A stretch of 64,000 bases of DNA from Eledone cirrhosa (taxonomy: Eukaryota): assembly GCA_964016885.1 (NCBI GenBank), contig OZ024747.1:55304001-55368000 (forward strand), written 5' to 3'. Both the position numbers and the translations under genes were made by a program. The notes beneath the pieces are model-generated. The model ran no database searches and was not told the DNA's origin. It saw only the letters and a list, made by a program, of their open reading frames with translations. Below are positions 39,161-57,905 of this stretch, piece after piece. Position 1 is the stretch's first letter, and every line of letters begins with the position of its first letter.

Positions 39161-39880
39161 TCTTTCTCAACCCCTCTCCCTTTTTTTCTCATACCCTCTC
39201 TCTCTCTTTCTCTCTCTCCCTCACTCATAACCCTCTCTCTCTCTTCCTCTACAGAATGGAGAACAATAAAGAACGCGCAGAGCTCTCTTTCTCTCTCTTT
39301 CTCTCTCTCTTTCTCTCTCTCTGTCTTTATATATATATATATGTGTTTGCGTGTGTGTCTGTGTGTGTGAACCAATGTTCGTTGCCATTCTCTCTCTCTC
39401 TCTCTCTCTCTCTCTCTCTCTCTCTCTCTCTCTCTCTCTATCTATCTATCTATCTATCTATCTATATATCTATTAATCTAGCTGTCGTCTGTTCTACAGT
39501 GTGGATGTCATTCACTTCGCACAGAAGTTTTGTTCAAATTTATTGAGGAAATTTTGTGAGTTCAAACTTAATTTTGATACAATTGTGTAGCTTGACCCTC
39601 CGTCTGAACTGTCAGGCGGTGGGTCAGCTCATCTTTACCCCTCCTAGAGGTGGAAAACCTGTTTTAAAAAATTTTGTGTAAAAAATTTCAATCGTCTAAC
39701 AGAAATGTTAAACGCAGCGAACGAAAATAGTGGTGGTGGGACAGCGGTAAGAGTTGTAAGCTCGCACGCTTTAGTCCCCCCCCTTCCTTCCCAACTAACG
39801 TCATAGAGAAGGAAGGAAAAATTAAAATAAAAACAGACGAATCTGCGGAGAAAAAAAATGACGAAAACACAAATCTGGAC

Positions 39881-41638
39881 ATGGATTCCAACAACGAAAA
39901 AAAAAAATTTGAAAAATTGCATGACAATACTAATAACACAAACAAAGACACAACAAACACAAAAATAACATTTGAAAATAACACCATAACAGAAAGCAAA
40001 GCAGACGACAAGATTTCATTTGCACAGAAAACAAAGAAATCTTTGACTTATATAGCGGAAAATATTTCAGATGTGGCACGAAGGATCACAGACGCCAAAC
40101 AATACATAAGTGAAGGAGAGAATGGTATTTTATCGGTAAAAATGCCTCAAGAATTCACCAAAGACATTGAAAGCCGAACGGTCAAGTTTCGGACCATCAA
40201 CAACAGTACAAAAAAACCTGAACAGCCTTCTCAAGCAGATATCAAAACAGTACTCACAGAAGTACTTAATGAAACCACTTTCATAAGAAAAGACAGACTG
40301 TATGGAAGCCTAGCAATTATCATGAAGAACGAATCGGCGGCAAAAAAATGTGCTTTGTCACCGATTCGTTCGAAAAATTTCACCTTTTATCCATCTAATA
40401 TGGGGAAAAGAACTCAACGCATATGGTTGGATGCAATGATGCCATATGTGGACTACTGCTGGCTCATAGCTGGCTTCATCGATCCAGTGAATGACAACGT
40501 GATTTCCATTGGGAAAACCACAGGCAATGCGTTCAGTGGAACAGGTATAGAGCTGGTAGTGCAAATGAAGCCTGAACGCATCGCCCAAATACCCGACAGA
40601 ATCCTATTAGAGGACCACGGGTATATAAACATTAGCGTGGAGGGGAGAAGGCCGTCCTGCCATATCTGTGCAGGCAGAGGGCACCTGAAGGCCGCTTGTC
40701 CCCAACTCAACATAAAGAAAACCCTGCTACCAACACCACCACCACAACAGATAAACAAACAACAAAACTCAGTCCCACCCAACCCGTCCCTCAGTAAAAC
40801 CACAACACCACCACAACACAAACAGTCACAACACATTACCCCAAAACAAAATACAGGCCCACCCAACCTCTCACTCAATAAAACAACACAACCACCGCAG
40901 ACACAACACACAACACAGTCTAACATAGTGACATCCATCTCCCCCACAAAGAAAACCAACACGGAAACATTACCAGCAAACATACCTCTTCCCTCCAACA
41001 CTGAAGATAACCCAACGAATTCGGAGGAAGAAACGGAGTCCTTCAGACAGATTAAAAGGAAAAAAAGAAAACATGTGCAAAACACACAAGGCCAAACAAC
41101 CCCCACCCAAATCTCAACACAATCCAACAAAACAGGAAACACCCCTCCAGCAACAAACAAAACCAAACCTGCCCCTCCCCTCTTCGAAACACTCACACCA
41201 TCCGAAAAAAAGACATTACACTATACTTACATCAACAGAAACAATAATAAATTAAATGAACTCATATACAATAATCCTTCGGTACAAACCGAAGGTGTAA
41301 ACTTTGTTTCGTCAGAAAACTACCCACATTTAAAATTAATAAAGATCCCAATGAACCTCTACCAAAAACTAAAAAAGGATTTTAAGGAGGACGTAGGACC
41401 ACCCTCTGTCAAACCCATAAACCGCGTCCTACTAAAAAGCTTTCCCCCTCCCCTTCCCCCCCCAACACAACTCCAAACACCCCAACCCCACCACACACTG
41501 ACGACCCCACACCACCACAAGACACCCCTTCACCCAACACCCCCGACCCCATGGAAGTCGTGCAACCCGAACCCCGGGAAGCGGAAAGGTAGGTCTCTAC
41601 ACTCTCCTTTGGCTCTGCCGCCCACATGGATGTGTTAA
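39881..41638 (+). CDS. Tx1-B ORF1 (CCHC zinc-knuckle nucleic-acid-binding protein)
   Basis: CHICAGRGHLKAAC knuckle, P/T/Q-rich linker, upstream of ORF2. The ancestral stop is probably TAG at 41590 (likely frameshift in the C-rich tract). Confidence 0.85.
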   Translation: MDSNNEKKKFEKLHDNTNNTNKDTTNTKITFENNTITESKADDKISFAQKTKKSLTYIAENISDVARRITDAKQYISEGENGILSVKMPQEFTKDIESRTVKFRTINNSTKKPEQPSQADIKTVLTEVLNETTFIRKDRLYGSLAIIMKNESAAKKCALSPIRSKNFTFYPSNMGKRTQRIWLDAMMPYVDYCWLIAGFIDPVNDNVISIGKTTGNAFSGTGIELVVQMKPERIAQIPDRILLEDHGYINISVEGRRPSCHICAGRGHLKAACPQLNIKKTLLPTPPPQQINKQQNSVPPNPSLSKTTTPPQHKQSQHITPKQNTGPPNLSLNKTTQPPQTQHTTQSNIVTSISPTKKTNTETLPANIPLPSNTEDNPTNSEEETESFRQIKRKKRKHVQNTQGQTTPTQISTQSNKTGNTPPATNKTKPAPPLFETLTPSEKKTLHYTYINRNNNKLNELIYNNPSVQTEGVNFVSSENYPHLKLIKIPMNLYQKLKKDFKEDVGPPSVKPINRVLLKSFPPPLPPPTQLQTPQPHHTLTTPHHHKTPLHPTPPTPWKSCNPNPGKRKGRSLHSPLALPPTWMC

Positions 41639-57300: not shown

Positions 57301-57494
57301 ACCGGGGCCCTGTCTATGAGTTCTGTCAAGGTTGACCATGCAGGTCACTAATTTGTGGTCTGAATAGACAACAATGCGCATTTTTGGACAACTTAAAAAG
57401 TCCTTATCCTTAATTCTAACTAAGAACCTATCTAGGTACGACCTAGATGATCCTCTACGATTTGCCCAAGTCCAGGTTGGCGCAGTCGGAAAAT
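54334..57494 (-). mobile_element. Tx1-B LINE (B2), 5'-truncated within the endonuclease, between (GATA)n arrays
   Basis: ORF2 runs from FPTAPTWTW to ...GPSLYIRL* (54596) with one frameshift near 54870. (GATA)n at 54267-54333 and 57494-57534. Confidence 0.93.
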
Positions 57495-57905
57495 AGATAG
57501 ATAGATAGATAGATAGATAGATAGATAGATAGATATAACCAACTCGAACGCGCACAATATATAAACGAATTCCTCGGGCAGATGTTTTACTTTTTATGCA
57601 CAAATGTAAAATATATTTAACAAGTATATATAGATTATTCTAAAAATCCACCAGCGCCGATGTGTGGCGTTCTCACACGTCGACTGAGATGGCTGTCACG
57701 TGATCACTATTTAAGTCTATCACAGTGAGACATATATATCTTTATTGTAGAGAGCGTATTAGACATGATATTAATATATATATATATATATATATATATA
57801 TATATATATATATATATATATATATATATATATAAAGTAGAAACTATTATTATTGGGACCCTTTGGTCTCGAAAATCCATATATATATATATATATATAT
57901 ATATA

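Follow-up and report, generated by a model that had tools for sequence, protein, structure and literature searches.

A long interspersed nuclear element lineage placed in one orientation at TATCT motifs, mostly within GATA microsatellites

Three copies of lineage B in (TCTA)n arrays

The window analyzed here, the whole of a 64,000-nucleotide stretch of contig OZ024747.1 (positions 55,304,001 to 55,368,000, forward strand), contains three copies of a long interspersed nuclear element (LINE), termed lineage B. Read on the sense strand of the element, each copy has (TCTA)n, the complement of (GATA)n, on both flanks. An initial annotation of the window had reported these copies and all of their flanking arrays, and we found them at the same places and on the same strands. 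Copy 1 is a B1 subfamily element (about 39475..45269, + strand). It follows a 5′ (TCTA)n target array (39437..39473, +), the last 19 bp of which (39455-39473) are the 5′ copy of the target site duplication (TSD), and it precedes a (TCTA)n run (about 45267..45302, +) that holds the 3′ copy (45270-45288). The exact 19-bp duplication brackets the element, with an identical TA interruption on both sides. Copy 1 had been described as full-length, which is true of its extent, but both of its open reading frames (ORFs) are frameshifted. ORF1 (39705..41592, +) encodes a single CCHC zinc knuckle and is 625 amino acids long in an intact relative (sampled locus L045); its protein-atlas neighbors bear zf-CCHC, and a Pfam search with ORF1 gave no match. 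ORF2 (41626..45052, +) encodes an apurinic/apyrimidinic (AP)-type endonuclease (EN), a reverse transcriptase (RT) and a C-terminal zinc finger, and is 1145 amino acids long in intact relatives. At its 3′ end copy 1 carries AATAAA (45258-45263, +), then GAA, then ATC.

Copy 2 is a 5′-truncated B2 element (about 54332..57494, − strand) whose truncation falls within the EN-coding part, leaving a 940-amino acid open frame with RT and zf-RVT. One (TCTA)n array lies at its 5′ truncation point (57493..57535, −) and another (54267..54334, −) is common to its 3′ end and the 5′ truncation point of copy 3. The latter, a B3 element (about 53895..54264, −), consists of the ORF2 end and the 3′ untranslated region (UTR) and has a (TCTA)n run on its 3′ side (53842..53894, −). 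Copy 3 is stacked directly 3′ of copy 2 with the array between them shared, which agrees with the earlier description of two copies in one array. Identity to copy 1 amounts to 83% for copy 2 (over 3028 nt) and 68% for copy 3 (over 367 nt), and the three represent three subfamilies of one EN-RT LINE lineage.

The survey covered a 3.0-Gb assembly of 1796 contigs. First-look candidates numbered 1486 for B1, 15 for B2, 2697 for B3 and 989 for B4, a fourth subfamily picked up from a background stretch (L198:1-10000) in which at least four B copies of several subfamilies follow one another head to tail, with short TCTA runs between them. The exact 19-nt B1 end occurs 1678 times genome-wide. Copies of B1 sampled first were 96-99% identical to the window copy, and among 21 full-length B1 copies an intact 1145-amino acid ORF2 was present in 11 and both ORFs were intact in 6. 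The intact ORF2 of L045 matched Exo_endo_phos, RVT_1 and, just below the cut-off, zf-RVT in Pfam. The closest named homologues were Argonauta hians proteins (57-67% identity), which makes an octopod the likely host. In an RT tree of 35 rows, built without a named Tx1 reference, B copies were monophyletic (support 98/100), and the larger group that they form with lineage A, one Argonauta protein and one further protein also had support of 98/100, on a backbone that did not resolve. Lineage B is likely older than the split from argonauts, since an Argonauta hians protein (P0036) has an EN motif of the B type, in which Y aligns with R155 of the L1 EN.

Junctions and target site duplications

Copies were chosen by similarity of the 3′ UTR, with flanks excluded from the query, and 85 were scored: 38 of 40 B1 hits, 40 B3 copies and 7 of 16 B2 rows. 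The two B1 hits dropped were downstream members of tandem pairs, and the nine B2 rows dropped were divergent, duplicate or unresolved. Nine of 30 B4 loci were also set aside because their 5′ junction was not resolved, and the TSD counts exclude four tandem copies. A perfect TCTA run of at least 12 bp was found no more than 30 nt 5′ of the junction in 53 of the 85 copies (61 with a run of at least 8 bp), including 21 of 22 full-length and 32 of 63 truncated copies. The reverse-orientation repeat was present at none of the 85 junctions. Across 40 evenly spaced 10-kb stretches of background, a TCTA run of at least 12 bp occurred in the preceding 30 nt at 84 of 113,840 positions (0.074%), so that 5′ runs at B junctions are enriched about 800-fold. 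Such runs were also found at 9 of 21 resolved B4 junctions and at 9 of 20 B1 ends that lack a following ATCTATC, with no reversed repeat in either set (0/21 and 0/20). Pooled, 71 of 126 resolved 5′ junctions bear a run of this length.

Marker-bearing TSDs, which have non-repeat bases on both sides, were seen in 27 of 81 copies, compared with 3.5 expected by cross-pairing, and had a median length of 20 bp. When TSDs were anchored after the terminal ATC and B4 was included, the count was 27 of 102 compared with 1.9 expected (median 16 bp). Unique sequence is duplicated at L005, L032, L045, L049, L091, L219 and L323. Because these TSDs include non-repeat marker bases, the 5′ repeat is the old target and not a tail. 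At several loci (L005, L045, L049) the TSD explains the entire 3′ run and one copy (L135) is without any TCTA, thus a long tail is not obligatory. The initial annotation had argued that a simple 3′ tail cannot account for TCTA at truncation points, and the truncated copies, the fixed orientation and the marker TSDs bear this out. It had also asked whether most copies might lack TCTA at the 5′ junction or be oriented at random; neither was observed.

It could be supposed that no targeting takes place and that the pattern reflects a tail together with microsatellite expansion after insertion, with tandem duplication or with preferential survival in DNA rich in repeats. The genome is microsatellite-rich, some copies have tandem-duplicate neighbors (L040, L048, L130, L223, L368-L371), and one upstream repeat is common to four copies, all of which would fit such an origin. 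That account is nonetheless very improbable, given the duplication of unique bases beside TATCT, the single orientation and the size of the enrichment, together with the behavior of a second, tailed LINE that served as a control. This LINE, which we take to be RTE-like (Pfam returned no family), has 3′ ends mostly starting with TAGA, and a TAGA/TCTA run of at least 8 bp was found at 0 of 30 of its 5′ boundaries, some of these being incompletely resolved. Pieces of it lie in the window at about 21040-21179 and 30880-31211 (+) and at loci L287-L316, often running into (TA)n, and its TAGA-starting ends are a possible source of new GATA seeds.

Copies of lineage B are frequently stacked. Another B 3′ end was present no more than 130 nt upstream in 26 of the 85 copies, and flanking B sequence was co-oriented with the copy in 32 of 33 cases upstream (one having both orientations) and in 30 of 30 downstream. 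Some tandem copies have identical junctions, a number of them cut at the same base (L012/L013, L026/L027, L130, L223, L368-L371), reflecting either tandem duplication or homology-guided 5′ joining. A dispersed repeat ending in a TCTA array lies upstream of five B1 copies (L034, L039, L040, L130, L387) and is a recurrent supplier of targets.

Target motif, RNA ends and endonuclease

The duplicated block starts in a single phase, with TATCT or a near variant. Of the exact B1 ends, 829 of 1678 continue with ATCTATC. Among 20 sampled B1 ends without ATCTATC, 17 start with ATATAT after GAA, mostly as ATATATCT, and most are still located at TATCT motifs. The core preference is a strong, oriented, in-phase TATCT motif, landing mostly in GATA microsatellites. 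The lineage had been proposed to be a GATA-specific family; oriented targeting of GATA arrays holds, but the core of the target is TATCT, and only 71 of the 126 pooled junctions lie in an array of at least 12 bp.

Several points temper this description. Arrays accompany about 55-60% of junctions, leaving about 40-45% without a long array, and in the pooled set 55 of 126 junctions have none of at least 12 bp. Several junctions lie in pure (TA)n or at CT/TA borders (L037, L047, L135, L380). At marker sites, an upstream ATCT unit is present in 12 of 27 compared with 28% of background TATCTAT sites, making any preference for arrays beyond the 7-mer weak or modest, and arrays now seen at insertions may have grown after insertion. 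Sampling was biased toward copies of high identity and toward the largest contigs. Junctions were placed manually on the basis of BLAST ends, and the few that are probably misplaced were kept as misses.

The first bases after GAA are fixed by subfamily, as ATCT or as ATATATCT, ACATATCT or ATTTATCT, and are therefore copied from the RNA. In B4, a set of copies ends instead in CAAT. These number 126 genome-wide by exact pattern and 8 of 30 among BLAST-chosen B4 copies, whereas a single one of the 1678 B1 ends continues with ATCAAT. The background frequency of AATA is twice that of TATC, yet B1 uses the AATA-type end only this once. Twenty-three of 25 examined CAAT copies continue with AATA, and among those with resolved junctions about half have TSDs that start with AAT in AT-rich, non-GATA DNA, the rest being without a clear TSD. 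The copies (L323, L330, L334, L337, L348-L372, L393-L399) are 99.1-99.3% alike among themselves and 98.2-98.5% alike to TCTA-type B4, and mostly form one young subclade with diagnostic single-nucleotide polymorphisms (13/16 vs 0/7 and 20/25 vs 2/16; 4 of the 25 CAAT loci, one duplicate and three tandem repeats, were excluded from this test). The sole CAAT copy extending into the EN has the same residues 1-237 as one TCTA-type copy and differs by one residue from another. This identity in one copy, with CAAT copies found at AATAT, hints that the RNA 3′ end may co-select the target. One GATA target for the whole lineage, as first put forward, thus describes the TCTA-type copies; the examined CAAT-ended B4 copies are at AATAT and not in GATA arrays. 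These sites, along with the 55 junctions without an array, place lineage B outside a strict one-target specificity.

The EN of lineage A and that of B1 are 61% identical (137/225), and their differences include 25 positions fixed across the examined B sequences. One of these aligns, by a hand count from the alignment, with R155 of the L1 EN, where B has Y and A has C; R155 has been implicated in contact with DNA beside the cut (PMC1950540). A C precedes the duplicated block at 26 of 27 marker sites, compared with 7.5-19% in the background. An explanation by the EN alone would have the enzyme read a degenerate Y|WAT-type site, with the 3′ repeat being duplicated target and the RNA end playing no role. 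Selective nicking of the target by the purified EN has been shown for Tx1L and R1Bm. The fixed EN differences and the preceding C speak for it, as does the coexistence of TCTA- and CAAT-ended copies in the young B4 subclade, and target choice is attributed mainly to the EN in PMC4494074. On the other side, subfamily-fixed variants show that the 4-8 nt directly following GAA are RNA-derived, one subclade is enriched for the CAAT end although one CAAT and one TCTA copy have an identical EN over residues 1-237, and T rather than C precedes AAT in several CAAT sites. We regard sole control by the EN as possible but somewhat doubtful. The same T at position −1 weakened the candidate of an invariant C before the cut. 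A nick fixed at T|ATC or at C|WAT was likewise not retained, as microhomology prevents choosing between them. The beta-hairpin loop was rejected as the determinant of the target, because its sequence does not track the target and a B2 loop resembles that of A.

Conversely, the RNA tail could dominate, with a loose EN nicking AT-rich pyrimidine-purine steps, pairing of the RNA end picking the microsatellite, and the tail being inherited from the site of the parent. The CAAT-ended B4 copies would fit this, with their AATA continuation, their AAT-starting TSDs and their near identity to TCTA-type B4, as would the rarity of AATA-type ends in B1 despite the frequency of this motif and the equal length of the EN hairpin loops in A and B. 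However, the pattern search behind most of the CAAT copies favors young copies, and the link obtained from BLAST-chosen copies only is one alignment column (6/7 vs 5/18, p=0.02 uncorrected). The whole EN was present in just one CAAT copy, the B1 EN differs from that of B4 (67% identical), and TCTA-ended copies are found within the same B4 subclade. Dominance of the tail is a tentative possibility rather than the expected outcome. The preferred reading is that target choice is most likely set jointly by the EN and the last bases of the RNA. The initial annotation had attributed the specificity to an AP endonuclease-type (APE) element; the target choice is real, but the EN may not be its sole source, and B4 points to a role of the RNA 3′ end.

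Target-primed reverse transcription is established for the L1 group. Copies of lineage B lie at TATCT in a single orientation and phase, for the most part inside GATA microsatellites; they show TSDs of about 10-22 bp, head-to-tail stacks and many intact ORFs. We are fairly confident of this account, in which the placement likely arises through an EN nick on the GATA strand combined with pairing of the RNA end. In this scheme the EN would nick the GATA strand inside a TATC unit (bottom strand about 5′-AT[A/T]^R-3′, the exact bond being masked by microhomology), and the second cut would fall about 10-22 bp away. The last bases of the RNA would then pair with the freed DNA end and prime reverse transcription; such base pairing between RNA and target ends has been raised as a contributor (PMC1950540). 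The position of AATAAA just upstream of the terminal bases suggests that the transcript may run a few bases beyond it into the target of the parent. The subfamily-fixed ends could select matching nicked sites, and because each insertion would leave TCTA on both sides, new targets would be created.

A more speculative extension, which we think somewhat less probable than its contrary, is that target memory resides in the RNA: the last bases of the transcript would hold a microsatellite address copied from the insertion site of the parent. A change from UCUAU to UCAAU would have moved the B4 subclade from GATA to AATAT with the same EN, and the split between A and B could largely be a tail switch as well. 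If so, octopod Tx1-type elements would represent a natural radiation of tail-programmed targeting.

Related repeats and known systems

The sister lineage A is located in the window at 1-3939 and 11796-13284 (+), or at 1-3999 and 11796-13343 in a wider delimitation, and was sampled at loci L139-L166. Each of the 30 3′ ends sampled continues into (ATT)n. Among 29 copies examined at the 5′ side, (ATT)n lies directly 5′ of all 23 that are full-length, and the other six are without it, three of them having another 5′ half. No marker TSD was seen in full-length A copies, so that targeting by lineage A is less well proven than that by lineage B. Insertions of lineage A often lie within (TAA)n tails of a different, oppositely oriented LINE, and fragments of another LINE in the window (13344-17505, −), with RT and zf-RVT matches and (TAA)n tails, are such landing sites. 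At L144, L158 and L162 a different 5′ half, likely another ORF1, is joined to lineage A at the same point, which suggests an ORF1 swap. An older branch of group A, D, shows a few marker TSDs (L262, L270, L285); it had been considered as a separate (TAG)n-targeting lineage, but its ends are ATT-type. Another candidate, "lineage C", a Tx1-like piece oriented the other way and with (TAGA)n at its end, proved to be part of a non-autonomous composite of about 1.25 kb (L227-L256; 2911 first-look candidates for its 3′ part). The composite has captured 3′ pieces of Tx1 and RTE-like type and includes a run of (TAGA)n, and from its TACTAG start we presume it to be helitron-like.

Lineage B provides a natural test of EN recognition against RNA-DNA pairing, through its intact copies, an (ATT)n sister with a 61% identical EN, and a B4 subclade that differs by one tail base, with one copy whose EN is identical to that of a TCTA-type copy. 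The question bears on retargeting LINEs as insertion tools, and the mechanism of microsatellite targeting was called not well understood in a 2013 review (PMC3812793). Lineage B repeats flank many of the GATA microsatellites of this genome, which would disturb marker design.

Lineage B has features of the L1 group, including a separate ORF1, an ORF2 with the order N-terminal AP-like EN, RT and C-terminal zinc finger, 5′ truncation and TSDs. Its best match among solved structures over EN and RT is human L1 ORF2p (E value 2e-51). A lineage A query scored 299 bits with a coral protein named after TX1 and 178 bits with human L1 in separate searches. Homologue, profile-library and name searches gave no named Tx1 reference, Kibi and Koshi included. 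Lineage B is a young, abundant L1/Tx1-type retrotransposon, its membership in Tx1 itself being inferred. It resembles human L1 in domain order, in TSDs from staggered cuts and in hairpin loop length. Human L1 ends in poly(A), whereas the terminus of lineage B is a repeat unit and no poly(A) tail is present. The insertion sites also differ, TT|AAAA for human L1 (PMC13295347) and TATCT for lineage B.

Among cephalopods, 80 L1-Tx1 families covering 56 Mb have been reported in O. vulgaris, 13 of them recently active, and L1-Tx1 is the only L1-group label among the active LINEs of that species (PMC13282606). These families may well include homologues of lineage B; the terms "target", "TSD" and "GATA" are absent from the main text of that report, which thus contains no target analysis there. 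L1-Tx1 has also been named as expanded in coleoids (PMC8967140).

A literature search found no LINE that targets GATA or TCTA; Repbase and Dfam were outside its scope, and a catalogued entry there may exist, though this is less likely than not. Waldo, Mino and Dong, from other clades (R1 and R4), resemble lineage B in targeting microsatellites, but use other repeats. These non-long terminal repeat elements insert in ACAY, AC and TAA, respectively, and the target list of the review that describes them (ACAY, AC, TC, TTC, TAA) is without GATA (PMC3812793). Neither GATA nor TATC occurs in the main text of PMC4494074, although its tree of Tx1 targets (Fig. 3) or supplements might list further motifs. 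That study took more than 20% of flanks with one repeat type as the mark of targeting (PMC4494074), and lineage B exceeds this with 71 of 126 junctions, in addition to fixed orientation, phase and repeat on both sides. Several crocodilian Tx1 families (Tx1-1_Crp, Tx1-5_Crp, Tx1-2_AMi and others) are found in (TTCC)n or (TTTC)n (PMC4494074), a preference for tetranucleotide microsatellites like that of lineage B but with a different motif. Because these families are already described, only the motif and the host are new in lineage B.

Close parallels are also Kibi, in (TC)n, and Koshi, in (TTC)n, teleost members of the Tx1 clade which, like lineage B, are APE-type LINEs inserted specifically in microsatellites (PMC4494074, PMC3812793). 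Their units as written are pyrimidine-rich, as is TCTA on the sense strand of lineage B, a likeness of the units in their written form. Lineage B is set apart from them, by description only, through its TATCT/(GATA)n target, its likely mollusc host and its sister lineage in (ATT)n, and it extends the short list of LINEs that target microsatellites by this target and host.

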